A DNA stretch of 36,317 bases from a virus (Duplodnaviria; Caudoviricetes). Positions 2,650 through 30,673 of this stretch are shown here, in pieces. A program made the position numbers and the translations under genes. Location: IMG/VR virus record IMGVR_UViG_3300022936_000021, positions 1 through 36,317 of that record. One strand, written 5' to 3'. The notes below the pieces were generated by a model. It was not told where the DNA came from, made no database searches, and saw nothing but the letters and a program-made list of their open reading frames with translations. The stretch's first letter is position 1. Each line of letters opens with the position of its first letter.

Positions 2650-2895
2650 ATGGAAGTTATACGTGGTCGGGGCGTAACATTTCATTTCAACGGTAATCTT
2701 ATATATGTTCAATATGGTGGAGCAACATACAGTATAGAACACCTGTCTAGGCCGGACGGTAAAGTATATCCTAAAAGGGACTTGAAAACCATTATAAAGC
2801 GTGGTGATATTGAAAACATAGTAGACCTATATTCGTGTATAAACATGCGCTTTTACATAAAAAGGATCGGAGAATTACCATGCGAATTGCAGTAA
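2650..2895 (+). CDS. Hypothetical protein
   Basis: Tightly packed in the operon. Confidence 0.6.
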   Translation: MEVIRGRGVTFHFNGNLIYVQYGGATYSIEHLSRPDGKVYPKRDLKTIIKRGDIENIVDLYSCINMRFYIKRIGELPCELQ

Positions 2896-4073
2896 AATAC
2901 GCTGTTATACCCACAGGAAGTAGACCAACTGAATATGCAAATGTAATTGAGTGGTGTACAAATAACTCTGTTATACCTATCACAATTACAACCTCAGCTG
3001 AAGCAAGGAAGTATGCAATAGGAATTACTATTGATGATGATGGTCTAAACATATCAACGTGGTGGAACTTAGGGCTTGACTACGCATATAGCAAGGGTGC
3101 TGATATTGTTCTAATACTTAATGATGACGTTGTTATGCCAAGCAATTGGTTAACTCCTATTACTAAAGCTATCGAAGAGGGTGCTAGTGGGGCAAGTGGA
3201 GAACGTGGCAACGGTGTTATCAGTGGCTATGCCTTTGCGTTGAATGCTAAAGATGGGATTAGAGCTGATGAGAACTTAGTATGGTGGTACGGCGATGACG
3301 ATATTCAGCGCCAATGTGAAAAAACTAATGGCTTCGTATGTGTACCCAAGCTACCTGTCAAAAACCTATATGCTTTCATATCTTCACGCTCACGCAAGCA
3401 ACAGATAGAGCTTGATAAGACTTATTACTTCAATAAATGGCGCTTAGACGTTACTGTTGTGGTTGCTACTCATGGAACAGAAGAATGGCGCAGTATGGGC
3501 GATAAAGCTCAGTTGTCAGCCCAAGCTACTGGTGCAAAAGTAGTAAGGGTGCATCTTGACAAAGGAACAGTTGCAGAAGCTCGCAATGCCGGTCTTGCTC
3601 AGGTTACTACTAAATATGTAGTGTTTCTTGACGCAGATGATGACTTAGAGCCTGACTACTTCAACGATGTGCGACCTGCAGCAGATGTTACTGTTACAAG
3701 CATTAAATATCCTTACAGTAGACAGCCAACTATTCCAAAGGTGTGGCAGCACGAAAAAAAGAGGGACAAGCTACATGCTGGACCTTGTGTGGGCGCTTGC
3801 TTAGTAGATGGTAATTGGGTTCACGTTGGTGCTATATGCAGTACTGAGGCCGTTAGAGCTGTCGGTGGGTTTAGAGAGTATCCAGTATATGAAGACTGGG
3901 CTTTATTCTTAGCGATGCAGCAAAATGGAGCCACTTTTGATACTCACCCACAATCTGTTTACTCAGCTTCAGTTAGGACTCACGGTAACCACCGCAATAG
4001 TTCTATGCCAATCCGTCTCCGTAATCGAGTTCATGAAGAGATATATAATGATATTGTAAAAGGCTCAAAGTGA
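2880..4073 (+). CDS. Two-domain GT-A (GT2-like) glycosyltransferase
   Basis: WNLGL..LILNDD..WWYGDDD in domain 1; ARNAGL..VFLDADD..GGFREY..EDWAL in domain 2. Confidence 0.9.
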   Translation: MRIAVKYAVIPTGSRPTEYANVIEWCTNNSVIPITITTSAEARKYAIGITIDDDGLNISTWWNLGLDYAYSKGADIVLILNDDVVMPSNWLTPITKAIEEGASGASGERGNGVISGYAFALNAKDGIRADENLVWWYGDDDIQRQCEKTNGFVCVPKLPVKNLYAFISSRSRKQQIELDKTYYFNKWRLDVTVVVATHGTEEWRSMGDKAQLSAQATGAKVVRVHLDKGTVAEARNAGLAQVTTKYVVFLDADDDLEPDYFNDVRPAADVTVTSIKYPYSRQPTIPKVWQHEKKRDKLHAGPCVGACLVDGNWVHVGAICSTEAVRAVGGFREYPVYEDWALFLAMQQNGATFDTHPQSVYSASVRTHGNHRNSSMPIRLRNRVHEEIYNDIVKGSK

Positions 4074-4717
4074 AAATCGGAGTCACAATTATGGCTCATC
4101 CAAAGCGTAGGGAAAGCGCATACGCTCTATTTGAGATACTGAATAAACAAACTTTTGCAGATGTTTCTATTACATGGGACTCTGAAAACAGCGAGTGGGA
4201 GACAGGTTCGAGAGCTTGGGAATATCTAGGCGAGCTAGACACTGACTACTCTTTGGTATTACAGGATGATTGTATTATTAGTGAAAACTTATACAAGAAT
4301 CTAAATAACGCTATACAAAATATACCAAAAGAAGGTGTATTATCTTTGTACTTAGGAAAAGTAAAGCCCCATCGCGGTTCTGTTCAAATGGCGTTTAATC
4401 ATGCTATTAGCTTAGGATGTTCGTATATTACCTGCCGAAACCTTTTGTGGGGGCCAGCTATAGTTATTCCCACACACAGTGTACAAGCCGTTTTAAGCGT
4501 ATCAAAACCATTAGTTAATTACTTATACGATATTAGGCTTGGAATGGCCGGCAGTGCCTTAGGAATGCCCATATACTACACAACTCAGAGCCTTGTTGAC
4601 CACGATGATGACCTAGGAAGCTTAATCGGGCATGAAGTAAAAGAAAAAAGATGCGCTCATAAGTATCAACCAGATGTAATTGAGAATTGGAACAGTAAAA
4701 CTATAAAGCTTTTTTAA
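4070..4717 (+). CDS. Glycosyltransferase-like protein (actinophage type)
   Basis: IMAHPKR, LVLQDD, SLVDH motifs; GTGA overlap. Confidence 0.75.
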   Translation: MKIGVTIMAHPKRRESAYALFEILNKQTFADVSITWDSENSEWETGSRAWEYLGELDTDYSLVLQDDCIISENLYKNLNNAIQNIPKEGVLSLYLGKVKPHRGSVQMAFNHAISLGCSYITCRNLLWGPAIVIPTHSVQAVLSVSKPLVNYLYDIRLGMAGSALGMPIYYTTQSLVDHDDDLGSLIGHEVKEKRCAHKYQPDVIENWNSKTIKLF

Positions 4718-12467: not shown

Positions 12468-12999
12468 GATTTGTCCGAAGTGTTCTGAAAAGGGGCACTC
12501 GGGCTTTTATTGTAAGAACACTCCACGTAAGCCTATGAGAGATAGTGGAAAGCCTGCTAGATCAATAAAGGTAAAAGTACCCGTTAAGAAAAAGAAAGCC
12601 CCTACACGGAGCCAATTAGTGAAGAAGCTAGACGATATATATTCTAAATATGTTCGCTTAGATCAATCAGACGAGTTCGGATATTGTATTTGTGTTACTT
12701 CTGGCGAACGGATGTTCTGGAAAGAAGCTCAGAATGGTCACTTTTTCTCTAGGCGCTTTTACCCTACTAGGTGGAATGATGATAATTGTCACCCTCAAAG
12801 TATGAGAGATAACGTATTTCTAAAGGGAAATTACATAAACTATACCCGTTATATGATAGATAGTTACGGCCGGGATTTTGTAGACGAGTTAGAAAAACTA
12901 GCACATACGACTATAAAGGTTAAAAACGCTGAACTTATAGAGAAAATAGCTTACTATTCAACAGAGGTAGAACGATTAAAACATGAAAAAGGTCTATAA
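12451..12999 (+). CDS. NinG/Rap-like junction endonuclease
   Basis: LVKKLDDIYSKYVRL..GHFFSRR...TRWNDDNCHPQ..GNY..Y...M...YG. Confidence 0.85.
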   Translation: MAQENKICPKCSEKGHSGFYCKNTPRKPMRDSGKPARSIKVKVPVKKKKAPTRSQLVKKLDDIYSKYVRLDQSDEFGYCICVTSGERMFWKEAQNGHFFSRRFYPTRWNDDNCHPQSMRDNVFLKGNYINYTRYMIDSYGRDFVDELEKLAHTTIKVKNAELIEKIAYYSTEVERLKHEKGL

Positions 13000-13014
13000 A
13001 GTCAGTGGAAAGTA

Positions 13015-13043
13015 TTGACTTTTACTCGACCATGATATATACT
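13015..13043 (+). promoter_or_regulatory. Promoter with partial operator motif
   Basis: TTGACT-N17-TATACT; spacer contains ACTCGACCATGATA. Confidence 0.75.
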
Positions 13044-13049
13044 AAAGAC

Positions 13050-13355
13050 ATCCTAAGAAAGGATAACAAAGAAAAGCTGGCACTCAAGTAGTTATATCGC
13101 CACAGTGCATATCGACCAGCTAATCTTTACACTCGGCTACCCCTACCGCACAATACTACCTACTAAGGAGTGCAAGCCTCCCATGAGATAGCGTCAAGTT
13201 ATGCGGTAAAGGTAGCTGAGAAAACAATTAACAATTAAGCGTATGAAACCGGTAATAAGTTCGAGCGTGAATGAGGCTTGAGGGTGTTATAGGTCGTCAT
13301 TCTGAAACCCCTATGCGAAAGTTAAATGCTTACTGCCGGTATCATACGCTTAATA
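13050..13355 (+). ncRNA. Structured leader/ncRNA cluster of three long stem-loops
   Basis: AGCTGG/CCAGCT, CTCGGCTACC/GGTAGCTGAG, ATTAAGCGTATGA/TCATACGCTTAAT closing helices separated by A-rich linkers. Confidence 0.55.
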
Positions 13356-13373
13356 AAAAGAAAGTGGGACAAT

Positions 13374-13577
13374 ATGTCAGACAAAAACAAAACAAAGAAC
13401 GAAAAATGGTCTAAACTCCAAACTACAGGATTTTGGGTATTGATCGCAGGACTAACATTATTTTGGAGCGGTGTATACTTTGGAACACAAGCAACACTCG
13501 CTTCACAGGCTCATGAAGCTACGGTCAAAGCACAAGCTGTTGAAGACTATAAGCAAACGTTAAAAGACGAGCAGTAG
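13374..13577 (+). CDS. Single-pass membrane protein (67 aa; zero-frame product of a frameshifted gene)
   Basis: TM segment GFWVLIAGLTLFWSGVYFG; ends inside a pseudoknot. Confidence 0.75.
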   Translation: MSDKNKTKNEKWSKLQTTGFWVLIAGLTLFWSGVYFGTQATLASQAHEATVKAQAVEDYKQTLKDEQ

Positions 13578-13618
13578 CACCAAAGCCGTCACAGGCTACT
13601 GTAGAAGAAAAGACGGTT
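13559..13618 (+). promoter_or_regulatory. Putative -1 ribosomal frameshift signal (slip site plus pseudoknot)
   Basis: G TTA AAA (13559-65), 5-nt spacer, S1 13571-78/13595-602, S2 13584-90/13612-18. Confidence 0.7.
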
Positions 13619-13975
13619 GAACCTATACAAGAGACTGTTATTGTTCCAGAAGTTCATATAGAGCCGCTTAAGCCTGTTGTAGCTCAATCTAGCATAGAGC
13701 AAATAGTGAGGGAAGCAGCTCGCAAGTATGGTATCAGCGAGGACTATTTTGTGAGCATAGCAAAGTGTGAGAGTACAATGAACCCAACTGCAGTTAATAA
13801 GGCCTATTATGAGAATGGACACCCTAGCGGTTTGTTCCAGCACATTTCAGGTTATTATCCAGCAAGGGCTCAGAAATACGGTTACAGTACGGACGTATTT
13901 GACGCATATAGCAACGCAAACGTAACTGCAGCAATGTTTGCAGACGGTTTAACTAATTTATGGGAGTGTAAATAA
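13565..13975 (+). CDS. Pro/Glu/Val linker plus SLT/Rpf-like lytic transglycosylase domain (-1 frame)
   Basis: IAKCES (catalytic Glu), SGLFQ, D..SN; frame open from 13553 with no SD-led start. Confidence 0.8.
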   Translation, partial: RRAVAPKPSQATVEEKTVEPIQETVIVPEVHIEPLKPVVAQSSIEQIVREAARKYGISEDYFVSIAKCESTMNPTAVNKAYYENGHPSGLFQHISGYYPARAQKYGYSTDVFDAYSNANVTAAMFADGLTNLWECK

Positions 13976-14236
13976 ATGGACAGCACTATTGAGTTGATAA
14001 AAGAAATTGAACCTGAGATGCGTTGGCACAATGATGAGTTGTTAGTTTTCTTCTATGGTTTTCAAGTAGAGGACGTTATGCAGGCATTGTCAGATGATTG
14101 TGCCAGTATATTCGACGATGGAGGCTTAGAAGTCTACATGAAAGACGGTTATATTGTTATGGACATGGCAGAAGTATTTGAGTATTGCGGTGAAGACCCA
14201 CAGATTCTATTGAATAAAAAAGAAGAAGATGATTAG
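13976..14236 (+). CDS. Acidic hypothetical protein
   Basis: GGAG SD; FDDGG motif. Confidence 0.7.
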   Translation: MDSTIELIKEIEPEMRWHNDELLVFFYGFQVEDVMQALSDDCASIFDDGGLEVYMKDGYIVMDMAEVFEYCGEDPQILLNKKEEDD

Positions 14237-14249
14237 TATAATTACACAG

Positions 14250-14430
14250 TTACCGAAGTATCCCCTATAGATACGAGCCATAGCAATGCACCTGTTGCTG
14301 GTAACTTAAACAAACGCTGCTTAGTTCTTATTGGGGCACTTGAGCGGCGAGCTAGTATCTATATCTAACGATAGGTTGGGCTAGACCCTATAAAGTCCTA
14401 CTCTGTGACAAACTGATACTAGCTTCATGA
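14250..14430 (+). ncRNA. Candidate structured RNA (multibranch)
   Basis: TATAGATAC.AGC/GCT.GTATCTATA helix enclosing two G-U-rich hairpins; no intact ORF. Confidence 0.45.
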
Positions 14431-14440
14431 AAATTATAAA

Positions 14441-14470
14441 TAAGCACCCTTACCGGGTGTTTTTTATTTT
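14441..14470 (+). terminator. Intrinsic terminator
   Basis: AAGCACCC-TTACC-GGGTGTTT plus T-run. Confidence 0.8.
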
Positions 14471-14475
14471 GCTTA

Positions 14476-14504
14476 TTGCTATTTTTATCACAGTCGTGTA
14501 TTAT
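14476..14504 (+). promoter_or_regulatory. Promoter with inverted operator motif
   Basis: TTGCTA-N17-TATTAT; TATCACAGTCG in spacer; followed by AAGTACATA as at 10429. Confidence 0.75.
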
Positions 14505-14533
14505 AAGTACATACCAAATAAGAAAGGGTCACA

Positions 14534-14725
14534 ATGAATCAACTACAATTTGAAGCAAAGAAACTTATCGTAGAGGGAAGCAGCCTAGATGACTTTAACA
14601 TTTTTGTTGTCGGTTTCGATGAGAGTGAAGTACTTAGTCAGTTCAGCGTTAAAGAGAAGCTAGAGAGCGTCGATAAGAGCGATATTCTTGATTACTTACA
14701 CGCTTTAAAGTTGGAGGAAGAGTAA
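14534..14725 (+). CDS. Hypothetical protein
   Basis: AGAAAGG SD. Confidence 0.7.
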   Translation: MNQLQFEAKKLIVEGSSLDDFNIFVVGFDESEVLSQFSVKEKLESVDKSDILDYLHALKLEEE

Positions 14726-23118: not shown

Positions 23119-23147
23119 TTGCTACTCTCACATATTACCCAGATAAT
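23119..23147 (+). promoter_or_regulatory. Late-type promoter
   Basis: TTGCTA-CTCTCAC...CA-GATAAT with 17-nt spacer; repeated at 27381 and 34486. Confidence 0.65.
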
Positions 23148-23229
23148 AAAATCAGAACTTATACAACCACATAAGCTCATCCAAGGGCGTGCGAGTGCGG
23201 TTCGATACATTAAAAGTAAAGGAAGTGCT

Positions 23230-25152
23230 ATGAAGAAACCATTCATGCAACTTGCGAAAGACGGAACTCACGAGATTATCGTAGAGGGTGTCATTTCCGG
23301 CGAACTATGGTGGGGTGATGAATTTACTCCTGAAATGGTACGTGCTGAACTTGCTGAGCTAAATGGTCAACCTATTCGGGTTATCATTAACAGCCCAGGC
23401 GGTGAAGTATTCGCTGGAGCAGCCATCTACAACGCATTACGTGAATACGATGGACGCAAGACTGTAAGAATTGACGGAATAGCGGCATCAATGGCAAGTG
23501 TTATTGCCATGGTAGGTGATGAAATCATTATGAACCCCGGTTCAACGATGATGGTACACCGACCAATGGTAGGAGCTTACGGCAACGTAACTGAACTACA
23601 CAAAGCTATTGAAATGCTTGAAGCGATAGAGGAAACTATCCTACCTATCTACGAAAAGCGTACAGGACTTTCTAAAGACGAAGTGTTTGACTTACTCGAT
23701 AAGGAAACATGGATGTCCGCAGATAAGGCTGTAGAGCTAGGATTCGCAGACAAGGAGCAGGAAGAAGAACCTGTTGCATCAGCATTTGACAAGGTTAAGG
23801 CTATGCTTGGTAACGAGCAATTCGCATTCTCAATGTCAGCTGTACATAAGTCACTATCTGCATACGTAGATACAGCACCTAAGGGAGAAGCGAAAGTGGA
23901 TACCGAAGAAACTAAGACAGAAGACGTTATTACGGAAGTAGAAGCTGTCGAAGAAGTCAAAACGGTTGAAGAGACCGCGCCTGTTGAAGAAACAGAAACC
24001 GAAGTAGAAGCAGTAGCTGAAACAGAGGAAACAGTTGAGGAAGTGACCACTCCAGAGGCTGAAACTAAAGAGGTCGTAAAGGAAATTAAAATGACAAAAC
24101 CTACTGCAGCTGAAATGGTTGTTCCTGTAGCTAAAGTTGAGGAAGCAACAGCTAAAAGCGACGCTGTCTCACACGCTGATTACAAGCGATCATTCGTTAA
24201 CATGCTCTCTGCAGCATACAACGGTGAAAAAGAAGTAGCATCTGCTAAGGCTGAAGAGCTTAAAGCACAAATGGTTATTAACGGAACTACTGGTAGCGAA
24301 CTACTCGGTGGTGAAGTATTGGCACGAGACATCCGCCAGGCTTACGAGCTTACTGGTCGTGTTGGTAGCCTTGTTAATCGTATCGACATCGAAGGTGCTG
24401 AAACATTCAAGCAACTTGTTGAGTCTGCTGGTGCTGGATTCCGTCCTGTTGCCCTCGGTGGTACTAAGCAAGAAGACCAGCCTGTCTGGACACCTGTAAC
24501 ATTCGAGCCTAAGGAATGGGCACTTATCGTTGCATGGCTTGATGGTGTACAAAAGCGCTCACCTATCGCAATCTACGACCAAATTGTTCGTTACATTGCA
24601 CGTGAATATGCTAAGCTTGAAGACCGCATTGTTCTTACCTACGCAGGTGGTACAGTTGGTGGCGAAACATTCGCAGCGACTGGTCTTGTTCCAGCACTCG
24701 AAACCGCTGGCCGTGTTACTCCAGTAGCAAGCTACACAAGCGAAGACATCCTTCCAGCTATCGGTGCAGCTTACGGCTCAATCGAAAGCGACGAAGGTAT
24801 CGTTATGGTTGCTAACCGTGGTACTTGGGGTGCTCTTGCAACTGCTATCGATGCAAACGGTCTAGCAGTATTCACTACTGTTGGTGAGCAAGTTGCTGCC
24901 GGTGCACTTGGAACATTCCGTGTTGTTCTCTCAAACGAGCTAGAAGACGGTCAGGTTGTTGTTGGTAACTTCAACGACTACACCATCGTTACTCGTGGCG
25001 GTCTTTCAACACTCTTTAGCCGTGAAGCTACTGTAGGATCACTCAACCTGTTCACAAACGACGCAAGCGCACTCCGTGCTGACGTTGACATCACAGGTGG
25101 ACCAGTTCTACTTACAAGCTTCCAGCTACTTGAATTTCCATCAGCATCTTAA
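23230..25152 (+). CDS. ClpP-type prohead protease - acidic linker - major capsid protein fusion
   Basis: INSPGG, GIAASMAS, MMVHRP, ETWMSA..A.ELGFAD; Glu/Thr linker; HK97-fold C-terminus (VVGNF..Y, ALRA..D). Confidence 0.9.
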   Translation: MKKPFMQLAKDGTHEIIVEGVISGELWWGDEFTPEMVRAELAELNGQPIRVIINSPGGEVFAGAAIYNALREYDGRKTVRIDGIAASMASVIAMVGDEIIMNPGSTMMVHRPMVGAYGNVTELHKAIEMLEAIEETILPIYEKRTGLSKDEVFDLLDKETWMSADKAVELGFADKEQEEEPVASAFDKVKAMLGNEQFAFSMSAVHKSLSAYVDTAPKGEAKVDTEETKTEDVITEVEAVEEVKTVEETAPVEETETEVEAVAETEETVEEVTTPEAETKEVVKEIKMTKPTAAEMVVPVAKVEEATAKSDAVSHADYKRSFVNMLSAAYNGEKEVASAKAEELKAQMVINGTTGSELLGGEVLARDIRQAYELTGRVGSLVNRIDIEGAETFKQLVESAGAGFRPVALGGTKQEDQPVWTPVTFEPKEWALIVAWLDGVQKRSPIAIYDQIVRYIAREYAKLEDRIVLTYAGGTVGGETFAATGLVPALETAGRVTPVASYTSEDILPAIGAAYGSIESDEGIVMVANRGTWGALATAIDANGLAVFTTVGEQVAAGALGTFRVVLSNELEDGQVVVGNFNDYTIVTRGGLSTLFSREATVGSLNLFTNDASALRADVDITGGPVLLTSFQLLEFPSAS

Positions 25153-27359: not shown

Positions 27360-27383
27360 AGACACCCTTCGGGGTGTCTTTTG
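27360..27383 (+). terminator. Intrinsic terminator with cUUCGg loop
   Basis: AGACACCC-TTCG-GGGTGTCT-TTT. Confidence 0.85.
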
Positions 27384-27409
27384 CTTTACTCACGTACTAC
27401 ACAGATAAT
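27381..27409 (+). promoter_or_regulatory. Late-type promoter
   Basis: TTGCTT-TACTCAC...CA-GATAAT with 17-nt spacer. Confidence 0.6.
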
Positions 27410-27452
27410 TAGAGCAGGGAAACTTATATATAATTTGACAACTAGGAGTTGT

Positions 27453-27875
27453 ATGACTGAAATCAGTATTCGTTTATCAAGCTTTAGCGATTTTACAGCA
27501 GTAAATGTTGAAGGCTTGGGTGTTATTAAGGTTAAAAAAGAAAGCTCTAACCAAGGAGCACGTCACTCGGAGATTATCCGTGACATCTTTAAACTACAAG
27601 ATCAAGGCAAAGCGCTTGAGCAGAAAATTAACTCTCTATTAGCAGAAGGTAAAGGGCAAGATGACCCTGAGTTCCTAAAGCTAGAGAAAAAAGGCTCAGA
27701 AGCTCTAGAGAAAATCTCAGAACTACGTACGGAAGACCAGAAGCTACGCAAGTCACGCCTCTCAGATGATGAGGGTGGAAAGCTAGTAGACATGCTATTC
27801 GATAGTGCGAGCGACCAGGACATCGCTAAACTACTTAACATTGAACCAGAGGCTCAGGATGACCAAACCAGTTAG
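27453..27875 (+). CDS. Tail assembly chaperone (G-like)
   Basis: AGGAG SD; between tail tube and TMP. Confidence 0.65.
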   Translation: MTEISIRLSSFSDFTAVNVEGLGVIKVKKESSNQGARHSEIIRDIFKLQDQGKALEQKINSLLAEGKGQDDPEFLKLEKKGSEALEKISELRTEDQKLRKSRLSDDEGGKLVDMLFDSASDQDIAKLLNIEPEAQDDQTS

Positions 27876-28239
27876 TTTCTTAGACAAGATGCCTGATGCT
27901 GAGCGTAAACAGGCCGTAGAACGTGCTGACAAGCGCTTAGAAAAGCAACAGTCTAAAAGAGGGCTCGATGTGCCTCCTATGTTCTTTATGGCCGCAGAGC
28001 TCGGTTATTACTATGGCTGGGAAGCATTGATGGCATTCCGGCGTGGCTATACGCAAAACCTAGAGGGTGAAAAGGAGTTGTTTACTATGCAAGAAGCAAC
28101 ACTTCTTTTAGAGGCTGCACAAAAAGTCTGGTACAAGAAGCTTACTGAGCAGGCACACGCTGGGGTTATTGGTAATTCTTTCACTGTAGGCGGAAGTTAT
28201 CAGGAAGCACTTAAACCATTAGAGGAAATGAGTAGGTAA
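27859..28239 (+). CDS. Tail assembly chaperone (T-like)
   Basis: Overlaps the previous gene; immediately before TMP. Confidence 0.6.
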   Translation: MTKPVSFLDKMPDAERKQAVERADKRLEKQQSKRGLDVPPMFFMAAELGYYYGWEALMAFRRGYTQNLEGEKELFTMQEATLLLEAAQKVWYKKLTEQAHAGVIGNSFTVGGSYQEALKPLEEMSR

Positions 28240-28240
28240 T

Positions 28241-30673
28241 ATGAATAATTCAACCGTTGGGTCTGTATCGTACGACGCTAGTATAAACCTAGCTAGTCTT
28301 AGTGCTTCTATTAAGCAAGCAGACAAAATGGTTGAAGACTCTGACAAGAGACGTTCAAGTACCTCTAATAAAGCAACTTCCGCAACAGATACTAGCTCAG
28401 CTTCTATGCTTAGATTTGCCGGCGGTGCTGCTGCGGCCGCCGCTGCTATTGCACTCGTTGCTACCAATGTATCAGGAGCGGTTAGTCGCTTCGACACACT
28501 GAACAATGCGCCTAAGGTTCTCATGAACATGGGTAACTCTGCACAAGAAAGCCAAGGGGCTATTGCTGCGCTACGTGACGGTATACTTGGATTGCCTACA
28601 AGTCTTGACCAAGCTGCATCCGCATTAACACGCATCTCTGCGGCATCTGGCCTAGGGGCTAAGAGCTCAGCGGCACTTACCTTGGCATTTAATAATATGG
28701 CATTAGCTGGTGGTAAAGGTTCTGCAGAAGCTGAACGTGCATTAGTACAGTTTACCCAGGCACTCGGCAAGGGGACACTACCAGCGCAAGAGTTTAACAC
28801 CCTTGTTGAAGTTATGCCTGCACAGATGGATCAAGTAGCTAAATCTATGCTAGGAGCTGGTGCAAACGCTTATACGCTCCGTGACGCTATGTCTGAGGGT
28901 AAGATTGGCATGGGCGCTTTCTCTGCTGAGATTATCCGGCTAAACCAAGAGGGTGGAGCTAACTTTGCTTCATTCTCACAACAGGCTAAAGATGCTACGG
29001 CTGGTATCGGCACAGGTGTGCAAAATATGCGAGCTGCGGTTACTCGTGGTATCACAGATATTATGGAGTCTATCGGCGGTTCTAGTATTCAGTCTGCTCT
29101 TGAGGGTATAGGGAAAGTATTTGAGAATGTCCTAGGCGGTATTGGGTATACTATTCGTACTGTTCAGGCTGGGTTTGCTCCATTCACAGGTGCTATTAGT
29201 GGTGCGGCTACAGCTACTAACGCACTATTCTCACAGTTTGCACCGTTAATGTCATTATTAGCTCCTGTTGCATCAGTTGCTGGAGGTTCAGCGATAGCAT
29301 TCGCTACTTTAGCAACCTCTGCCTTTATCGCAACTAAAGCAATGGCAGGCTTCAACTCAATACTTGTTCTTGTCTCTCGACACCCAGTTATCGCCGCACT
29401 TTCGCTTATTGCAGGACTTATTACCGGCATAGCTTCAGCTGCTGGAATGGGACAACTTACTGACGAGCTAGACAACGCTGCTGATTCATCCATTGATATT
29501 GGCAAGGCAATGGATGATGCACAAAAAAGTATCATGGGCTCAGCAGATGGAGCTGACGATCTTGCCAAGAAAATGGCAAAGATTAACGAGCAAGTACAAA
29601 AGGTACGAGAGAACTATCGTTATGCACTTGCAGAGTTGGTAAGTGAGAAGAACAAAAACATTGCCACTCTTACAAGCACTTTAAGCGAAGAGCAAAAGGC
29701 ATACGATAACTCTTACGCTCAAAGGCTTGCTTCATTCAGTAAGAACGAAAATGAACAGCTTACAACTCACGCGCAGAAGACACGTGCACTCCAAAATCAA
29801 ATTGACTTCCTTAGTAAGTACAATACTACGGCTAACCAGAAGCAATTGTCACAACTTCAATTCGCCCTTGCTAGAGAAAATGCAGAGTATCAAAAGTCTA
29901 CAGGGTTGCGACAAACTGAGTTTGACAAGCAAACCGAAAGTGAACGCGCTGAGTACGAAAAGCGACGCCTTGCTAACCAGGCACAACTAGATGCTGACCT
30001 AGGTCTACTAAATGCTCACCGTGATGAAGTTAACTCTGTTCGTGGTGTTATGCTCCGTGACCAAATCCAAAACCTACAATACCAGAGAGATGAACAGCTA
30101 AAATCCCTACGAGAACAGGCTACCAACTCACAGACTCAAGGTGGTATCGCAGGTACAGGCTTCTCTAACGCATTTACAAGTGCTCTAAAGAACATGGACG
30201 TAAAGACTACTGGTACTGAAAAAGGTAACGACTTTGTAGCTAAGTTTAACGATGCTATGAAGCTATCTGTAAGTAACCCTAAGAAGTTCTGGGAGCCTAT
30301 GGTTAAGTCATTCGATAACGTCCTAGGTCTTATGTCAGGTAAGCTTGAGATAAAGAACGGACAAATTGTAATGAAGTCCGGCGGAGGCGGAGGCTGGGCT
30401 GACGGTGGGTTCACAGGCACAGGTGGCAAATACGAACCTGCTGGTATCGTACACCGTGGTGAATACGTTATCCCTAAGGAGCAAGTTAACCAGGCTACAG
30501 GACTGCCAAAGGCAGGAGCAGCTGGTGGTGGTCAAAACATTACAGTTAACCTATCTATGAATGGTGTCATGACTTCAACAAGAGCTGATGAGCGTGCTAT
30601 TGCTAGTCGAATGGGTCAACTACTAAACGAAACATTAAGAGCTAAAGGTGCTCCAGTAATACAAGGAATATAA
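28241..30673 (+). CDS. Tape measure protein
   Basis: QFTQALGKG.L..QEFNTL tape-measure domain, Ala/Gly-rich TM region, coiled coil, GGFTG.GGKYEPAGIVHRGEYV. Confidence 0.95.
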   Translation: MNNSTVGSVSYDASINLASLSASIKQADKMVEDSDKRRSSTSNKATSATDTSSASMLRFAGGAAAAAAAIALVATNVSGAVSRFDTLNNAPKVLMNMGNSAQESQGAIAALRDGILGLPTSLDQAASALTRISAASGLGAKSSAALTLAFNNMALAGGKGSAEAERALVQFTQALGKGTLPAQEFNTLVEVMPAQMDQVAKSMLGAGANAYTLRDAMSEGKIGMGAFSAEIIRLNQEGGANFASFSQQAKDATAGIGTGVQNMRAAVTRGITDIMESIGGSSIQSALEGIGKVFENVLGGIGYTIRTVQAGFAPFTGAISGAATATNALFSQFAPLMSLLAPVASVAGGSAIAFATLATSAFIATKAMAGFNSILVLVSRHPVIAALSLIAGLITGIASAAGMGQLTDELDNAADSSIDIGKAMDDAQKSIMGSADGADDLAKKMAKINEQVQKVRENYRYALAELVSEKNKNIATLTSTLSEEQKAYDNSYAQRLASFSKNENEQLTTHAQKTRALQNQIDFLSKYNTTANQKQLSQLQFALARENAEYQKSTGLRQTEFDKQTESERAEYEKRRLANQAQLDADLGLLNAHRDEVNSVRGVMLRDQIQNLQYQRDEQLKSLREQATNSQTQGGIAGTGFSNAFTSALKNMDVKTTGTEKGNDFVAKFNDAMKLSVSNPKKFWEPMVKSFDNVLGLMSGKLEIKNGQIVMKSGGGGGWADGGFTGTGGKYEPAGIVHRGEYVIPKEQVNQATGLPKAGAAGGGQNITVNLSMNGVMTSTRADERAIASRMGQLLNETLRAKGAPVIQGI

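Follow-up and report, generated by a model that had tools for sequence, protein, structure and literature searches.

The question raised by this locus is whether a short membrane-protein gene and the headless wall-enzyme domain that follows it in another reading frame are a broken gene, two genes, or a single gene read through a programmed ribosomal frameshift. The window (the whole stretch of DNA analysed, 36,317 bases, which is also the whole virus record) is the genome of a tailed phage whose genes include those for terminase, portal, a ClpP-type protease fused with the major capsid protein (23119-25152) and tape-measure protein. On the forward strand, a 0-frame ORF (13374..13577) encodes a 67-residue anchor composed of a basic N-terminus (19 residues, net charge +3), one transmembrane segment predicted by hydropathy scan (residues 20-36; 13431..13481) and a 31-residue tail, with a predicted N-in, C-out topology. 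The -1 frame is open from 13553 and after the shift encodes a Pro/Glu/Val linker followed by an SLT-like domain of lysozyme fold (13565..13975), giving a predicted fusion of 200 residues (64+136). At the junction are the slip site G_UUA_AAA (13559..13565; its conserved core is the hexamer 13560-13565, NYA_AAA), a 5-nt spacer and a predicted H-type pseudoknot (13571..13618) with stem 1 at 13571-78/13595-602, stem 2 at 13584-90/13612-18 and an A-rich loop 3 of 9 nt; the 0-frame stop (13575-77) sits within stem 1. An earlier note on this DNA had placed the ORF, the open frame, the slip site, the spacer and both stems at exactly these positions. Its overall reading, that a programmed -1 ribosomal frameshift joins the anchor to the wall-enzyme domain, is upheld by conservation and we give it a probability of about 90%, whereas its analogy with an arterivirus heptamer did not hold.

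An assembly error or a decayed gene, suggested by the fact that the frames would join with one extra base, has a negligible probability in view of the identical split in 33 relatives (domain identity 55-83%), the gap-free junction in contigs from five runs (X1, X2, X3, X7 and X9) and the predominance of synonymous changes in both frames. Logan contigs from eight runs were compared with the window: X1, possibly the source run, covers the region with zero differences; X2 and X3 (one study) as well as X7 and X9 align gap-free over both the slip site and the pseudoknot; and X5, X8 and X11 cover only the upstream parts. No indel, the error that the earlier note had considered, was found, and contigs from three further studies cross the junction gap-free. 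In the close contigs, the anchor has seven listed changes, each of them silent in the 0 frame, and none of the listed changes falls in the slip site or the stems; of the 13 codons that differ in the SLT stretch of a related contig, 12 keep their amino acid in the -1 frame. Judged by these substitutions, we take it as demonstrated that coding selection acts on both frames. An independent assembly consists of a single 36214-base contig running round the locus, and the window genome is therefore likely complete, being circular or terminally redundant.

Searches of viral, metagenome and genome collections yielded 53 distinct loci after de-duplication (near-identical loci inflate the raw counts), of which 34 are split (33 relatives plus the copy in the window), 11 are single ORFs and 8 were set aside: six are truncated at a contig end, one is unclear, and one is an unrelated match in Vibrio. 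Eight of the first nine relatives examined were already split, and across the full set the homologues are mostly split, not single ORFs. The direction of the shift is -1 in all 34. An in-frame NYA_AAR/NNA_AAR pair lies in the junction overlap of 33 of the 34 split loci, compared with an NYA_AAR-type pair at the end of 4 of 59 other window ORFs. The slip pairs in these 33 loci are TTA AAA (21), TCA AAA (8), GTA AAA (3) and GTA AAG (1), and the base preceding the hexamer is G in 22, T in 8 and A in 3. Moreover, the slip hexamer was found in 22 of 24 split loci of a second set that carries other enzyme domains. It is the A run at the junction that could suggest fusion through transcriptional slippage instead; this is very hard to credit when the run has just 4-6 A and keeps to the codon phase of the 0 frame at 33 of 34 loci, and when it is followed at 4-9 nt by a pseudoknot, which is a ribosomal signal (PMC4066793).

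The arterivirus-type heptamer proposed in the earlier note is not what the family conserves, given the variation of its first base and the presence of UUA, UCA or GUA in the P site. Tandem slippage on X_XXY_YYZ was therefore rejected as the family rule: G_UUA and the eight U-starting loci allow or resemble it, but UCA (8) and GUA (4) do not, since these codons cannot usefully re-pair one base back. The conserved signal is the bacterial NYA_AAA hexamer, likely acting by a single tRNA-Lys slip. The NYA_AAR motif is absent in L045 (whose contig contains an N), L136 and L138; in these three and in L036 and L147, all of them split, there is either no slip site or one at an unsuitable distance from the pseudoknot. 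By eye, several of the five have U_UUA followed by AC, AG or GA where the slip site is expected, perhaps a P-site variant. The tree implies three changes between split and single forms; a single origin is not rejected (AU p 0.16), and we claim no direction for the changes. Two identical single-ORF copies lie 38 kb apart in a Saccharibacteria MAG (G004:C2:105345 and 143268) and are either a tandem prophage or an assembly duplication.

The pseudoknot is conserved along with the slip site. It was searched for by a script that accepted perfect stems, a spacer of 4-9 nt and a score of E <= -16; the geometry limits and the threshold were set after the first loci had been seen, and the scoring adds up stacking energies and does not give the free energy of a pseudoknot. 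In the window, the 75 nt that follow the slip site were shuffled 200 times with dinucleotides preserved, and no shuffle folded as stably into a pseudoknot of that geometry; when the -1 frame was recoded synonymously 100 times, the threshold was reached 10 times. Plain nested folding of 13566-13625 is unremarkable (z = -1.2), which is what a pseudoknot would lead one to expect. A qualifying pseudoknot is present in 28 of 33 loci, each matched by at most 3 of 200 shuffles, and no perfect pseudoknot was found in 5 of 33 first-set and 7 of 24 second-set loci. Among non-redundant loci, 23 of 27 have a pseudoknot at E <= -16 behind the slip site, built from many different stem sequences; the same threshold was reached at 8 of the 634 other NYAAAA sites of the flanking DNA, in 167 of 2700 synonymous recodings and in 61 of 506 two-locus chimeras. 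Each of the five core pairs per stem shows 4-5 pair types in both stems, a tabulation that leans towards pairing because the script picked the stems. Across loci, A makes up 51% of loop 3, and stem 1 contains the 0-frame stop in 18 of 23. RNAalifold on a plain MAFFT alignment returned 0 pairs because loop lengths vary and the stems are out of register. Six of the 11 single-ORF genes reach the threshold somewhere when the position is left free; therefore, only the fixed position behind the slip site is informative. There, at a spacing of 4-9 nt (the range searched), the predicted pseudoknot supplies the 3' stimulatory structure of a -1 signal. We demonstrate the split, the hexamer, the covarying stems and, as described below, the fold.

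It could also be supposed that the SLT domain is made without frameshifting, from its own start or by reinitiation at GTG 13706. Gene callers annotate such starts, and 20 of 33 loci have a GTG or TTG codon in the -1 frame, 20 or more codons ahead of the glutamate. However, these codons scatter in position and are lacking altogether in 11 of 31 testable loci, no ATG lies between the slip site and the domain in any of the 33 loci, and the window codon is GTG in 5 of the 33, leaving the independent start that the earlier note had entertained unsupported. Separate initiation would, moreover, leave the conserved slip site and pseudoknot unexplained and yield a product without an export signal, and we regard it as highly improbable. 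In the output of gene callers, the split genes appear as an orphan membrane peptide plus a headless SLT fragment, an annotation that the frameshift reading corrects.

The SLT-like nature of the -1 domain, also claimed in the earlier note, is supported by the PF01464 profile (31.3 bits against a cut-off of 21.3) and by a structure model (pLDDT 90) with a lysozyme-like fold. Together with this fold, the domain has the ES glutamate and a GLxQ motif, as SLT/GH23-like lytic transglycosylase domains do. The predicted catalytic glutamate lies in a CES motif (fusion residue 133; 13769..13771, forward strand), is invariant in 65 aligned sequences and aligns with the catalytic MltC glutamate that is Gln in entry 4cfo. 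The best structure matches are Slt (Z 11.0, rmsd 2.8, 90 aligned), EtgA (10.5) and MltE (10.3), with RpfB below the Slt matches (Z 7.6, rmsd 3.9, 80 aligned); the best Foldseek E value is 1.1e-3. The Rpf profile PF06737 gave no match for the window domain and a match below cut-off for a cellular homologue. Among cellular proteins, the nearest relative found is a Saccharimonadia DUF348-G5-SLT (RpfB-like) protein, whose C-terminal domain is 47% identical over 132 aa. The phage enzyme is probably a wall-remodelling domain of host type that was captured and would be displayed sparingly. Genes for DUF348-G5-lysozyme-like proteins were seen in Saccharimonadia chromosomes at L165:1498-2664 and L167:718-2685, both on the reverse strand, the latter directly upstream of rsmA/ksgA; rpfB occupies this position upstream of rsmA/ksgA in Actinobacteria.

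A DNA pattern describing only the pseudoknot had 7 matches, all 7 accompanied by a slip site, a membrane ORF and a -1 tail. Two were already known and five carry other lysozyme-like domains, namely SLT_3 (PF18896) and a domain like the C-terminus of aggregation-promoting factor (Apf-C-like; NF052397), both above cut-off; the cassette is therefore portable. A second, weaker DNA pattern gave 29 matches, none of which carried a cassette. Protein searches with the SLT_3 and Apf-C-like domains retrieved 38 loci, comprising 24 split (all -1), 13 single and 1 other. With the two seed loci removed, NYA_AAR is found out of sample in 20 of 22 loci and the pseudoknot in 15 of 22, some of these loci being near-identical. 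These results demonstrate that one predicted anchor-frameshift cassette carries three exchangeable enzyme domains. Among 401 Saccharimonadia genomes, 133 have a match to the Apf-C-like domain, the cellular matches being single ORFs in 22 of the best 25 examined and unclassified in 3. By sequence, this domain has no solved relative. The segment 13355-13643 of the window, which spans the anchor, slip site and pseudoknot, matches contigs from other studies at 97% or more and diverges from them sharply on both sides; this block is likely exchanged as a unit, in keeping with enzyme swapping behind a fixed cassette. No close relative of the window phage, nor of any of the three enzyme domains, was found among the cultured phages searched. 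Gene 24 of Streptomyces phage Ibantik is annotated as a single CDS.

The surroundings of the split gene bear on what its products might do. It follows the genes for Erf, a NinB-like protein and NinG. A candidate lysis pair at 595-1636 consists of an endolysin-like gene (Atlas feature score 0.86, a lead only) and a holin-like gene (PHROG match, E 0.009), and the location outside the lysis cassette given in the earlier note is borne out at this lead level. Holin-endolysin pairs combine a single-pass membrane protein with a muralytic enzyme, and the resemblance of the fusion to this logic is one attraction of regarding it as a lysis helper or superinfection-exclusion factor, with the anchor as a single-pass holin or DNA-entry blocker and the enzyme acting late or locally. 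A lactococcal lysin on two overlapping genes is, in addition, cited as frameshifted (PMC10885494). We consider this role unlikely, since the gene sits among Erf, NinB and NinG genes and is not adjacent to the candidate holin in the late region, the phage has a separate candidate lysis pair, and there is no holin family among the 25 anchor matches listed. Two glycosyltransferase genes (GT2 and GT25-like; 2835-4717) stand behind the candidate lysis cassette.

A sigma-70-like promoter match (10 of 12 positions; 13015..13043, forward strand), a consensus match only, is a candidate start of the transcription unit; promoter-like sites in total are at chance level (22 vs 23.8). Two leader hairpins are predicted on the same strand, a long one at 13234..13354 that ends 20 nt before the start codon (z = -7.0, 0/200 shuffles) and a second one at 13132..13220 (z = -5.3, 0/200 shuffles). 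The leader fold is not uniformly conserved, an upstream window with z <= -5 (best of 8 windows) occurring in 6 of 25 relatives scanned, and the hairpins have no Rfam match. A conserved leader RNA family was not established by these scans. In the region 12900-14600, Rfam gave nothing at gathering level and 4 weak chance matches. A look-up of RNA data listed none that contains the region, an outcome with no bearing on whether it is expressed. A structured intergenic stretch at 14240-14470 (-54 kcal/mol, a value that has no shuffle control) includes a terminator-like site (14442-14462) that may close the transcription unit.

The alternative that survives best accepts the frameshift and regards it as a mere throttle that keeps a dangerous wall hydrolase scarce, the short product having no job. 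This is a serious possibility, to which we nevertheless assign somewhat less than even odds. The 0-frame stop follows 0-5 codons after the slip site, which leaves the short product with hardly any sequence of its own, and single-ORF versions occur (11 of 53 loci, and 13 of 32 loci counted in the second set). However, all 33 split loci measured encode a basic N-terminus (12-35 aa), one hydrophobic stretch and a short tail (24-42 aa), whereas in the nine single-ORF forms measured 0-9 residues precede the hydrophobic stretch; these forms therefore represent a different architecture and not mended versions of the split gene. Scarcity could, moreover, be achieved more simply through weak initiation. 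The anchor itself matched no Pfam family above cut-off (29 aligned members) and had no Atlas match.

We propose that in the programmed frameshift the pseudoknot would stall the ribosome at the conserved UUA-AAA site, where the NYA-reading tRNA would free its third base and tRNA-Lys would re-pair from AAA to the overlapping A_AA, a single slip of the IS3/IS1222 type. Ribosomes that do not shift would terminate 0-5 codons later. The outcome would be many copies of the bare 67-residue anchor, with a smaller share of the anchored cell-wall enzyme of 200 residues. The fixed ratio, early expression and membrane complex proposed in the earlier note are putative. With its predicted N-in, C-out topology, the fusion would expose small, measured doses of a muralytic domain resembling the one in the Saccharimonadia RpfB-like protein, for non-lytic wall remodelling, a role that we find evenly balanced between likely and unlikely. 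The bare anchor might act as a scaffold in the manner of lambda G/GT, which we suggest tentatively and by analogy. In the single slip on NNA_AAG known from IS1222, which has been studied in E. coli, the A is freed for tRNA-Lys by a first tRNA prone to wobble (PMC5009743). Six tetramers tested in E. coli with the IS3 pseudoknot gave 0.26-5.6% frameshifting, A_AAA being the lowest; A_AAA is also a common motif among IS elements (PMC4066793). A low yield is thus to be expected, but host tRNAs may differ.

The phage cassette shares with the IS3/IS1222 signals an A_AAR core after an NNA codon, a short spacer and a downstream H-type pseudoknot (PMC5009743; PMC4066793). It differs from them in having AAA and not AAG in 32 of 33 loci, in a first codon confined to UUA, UCA and GUA (once CCA), and in a product that is a predicted membrane-anchored wall enzyme, theirs being a transposase. 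Lambda gpG/gpGT similarly yields from one gene a short 0-frame product and a rare C-terminal extension, at 30:1 (PMC5009743), but the cassette does not lie between tail genes, encodes a non-structural membrane protein, and has as its extension an enzyme with three exchangeable subfamilies. The tape-measure gene of the window (28241-30673) is 14 kb from the split gene, which does not occupy the G/GT position. Two overlapping ORFs do stand ahead of the tape-measure gene, in the usual tail-chaperone position (27381-28239), the second being in the +1 frame with its own ATG overlapping the end of the first. The Ig-like extensions of phage capsid and tail proteins are also mobile C-terminal domains on part of the copies, yet they use +1, -1 or in-frame fusion indifferently (PMC5009743), whereas the cassette is always -1, with one signal and a membrane carrier. 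With the Saccharimonadia RpfB-like proteins it shares the catalytic subfamily, the cellular DUF348 and G5 domains being replaced in the phage by anchor, frameshift and linker. Finally, the lactococcal lysin, listed by PRFect among known frameshifts (PMC10885494), is likewise a phage wall hydrolase over two overlapping frames, so that a frameshifted wall hydrolase has some precedent; it is by title a lysin, whereas the split gene lies outside the candidate lysis cassette.

In the literature consulted, phage frameshifts are mostly those of tail chaperones and virion proteins, and 2397 of the 2476 joined genes of SEA-PHAGES are tail chaperones (PMC10885494). A terminase frameshift (PMC9030533) was considered as a prior report and set aside as a different gene. 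Within the literature searched, which took in few subscription journals, there was no report of a split anchor/wall-enzyme family; the candidate lists of frameshift surveys could contain it. We regard the -1 signal as real, conserved and of a known type, with an apparently undescribed use. It would represent a widespread non-structural use of frameshifting by phages, with a compact signal and natural variation across more than 50 loci, and would offer a natural series for single-tRNA slippage at NYA_AAA with a 40-50 nt pseudoknot.

The split gene also occurs in the chromosomes of Micrococcaceae, within integrated prophages of low GC; a search of 401 genomes of this family found it in 2. Phage-like islands with the split gene were seen in Paeniglutamicibacter (G001:C12, ~516000-574000) and Arthrobacter (G002:C44, ~146000-190000); these islands have 48-56% GC within chromosomes of 64-70% GC. 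In the five genomes that yielded L001 and L070-L073, the window terminase found no counterpart, and these prophages are therefore not close kin of the window phage overall. Because the window has 41% GC, Saccharibacteria are the likelier guess for its host. The signal would need to function in both Saccharibacteria and Micrococcaceae, and the cultured Arthrobacter and Paeniglutamicibacter carriers make the system testable without CPR culture. Replication in Actinobacteria has been predicted for phages of Saccharibacteria (bioRxiv 10.1101/2022.11.22.517103), and a Schaalia prophage attaches to TM7x and infects it weakly (PMC13578794); neither text uses the word 'frameshift'. It is conceivable, and in our judgement improbable, that the cassette is a portable display device with which phages moving between Saccharibacteria epibionts and actinobacterial hosts show a captured RpfB-type domain on the infected cell surface, at a set ratio to the scaffold anchor, loosening or reawakening the wall of the partner. 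If this were true, translational recoding would steer a two-species symbiosis.

Several further features were observed around the split genes of these relatives. On the Saccharibacteria MAG contig L071, the split gene adjoins a tRNA-Gly gene. In L070, ARAGORN calls a 91-nt tRNA-Val(TAC) at 3983-4073, ~590 nt upstream of the anchor, and makes no such call near the other split genes. A membrane-anchored gene, which we take to be CAP-like, lies directly 3' of the split gene in both L071 (5091-5606) and L072 (5352-5882). At the edge of the Paeniglutamicibacter island there is a recombinase-like ORF, presumably of the serine-recombinase type.
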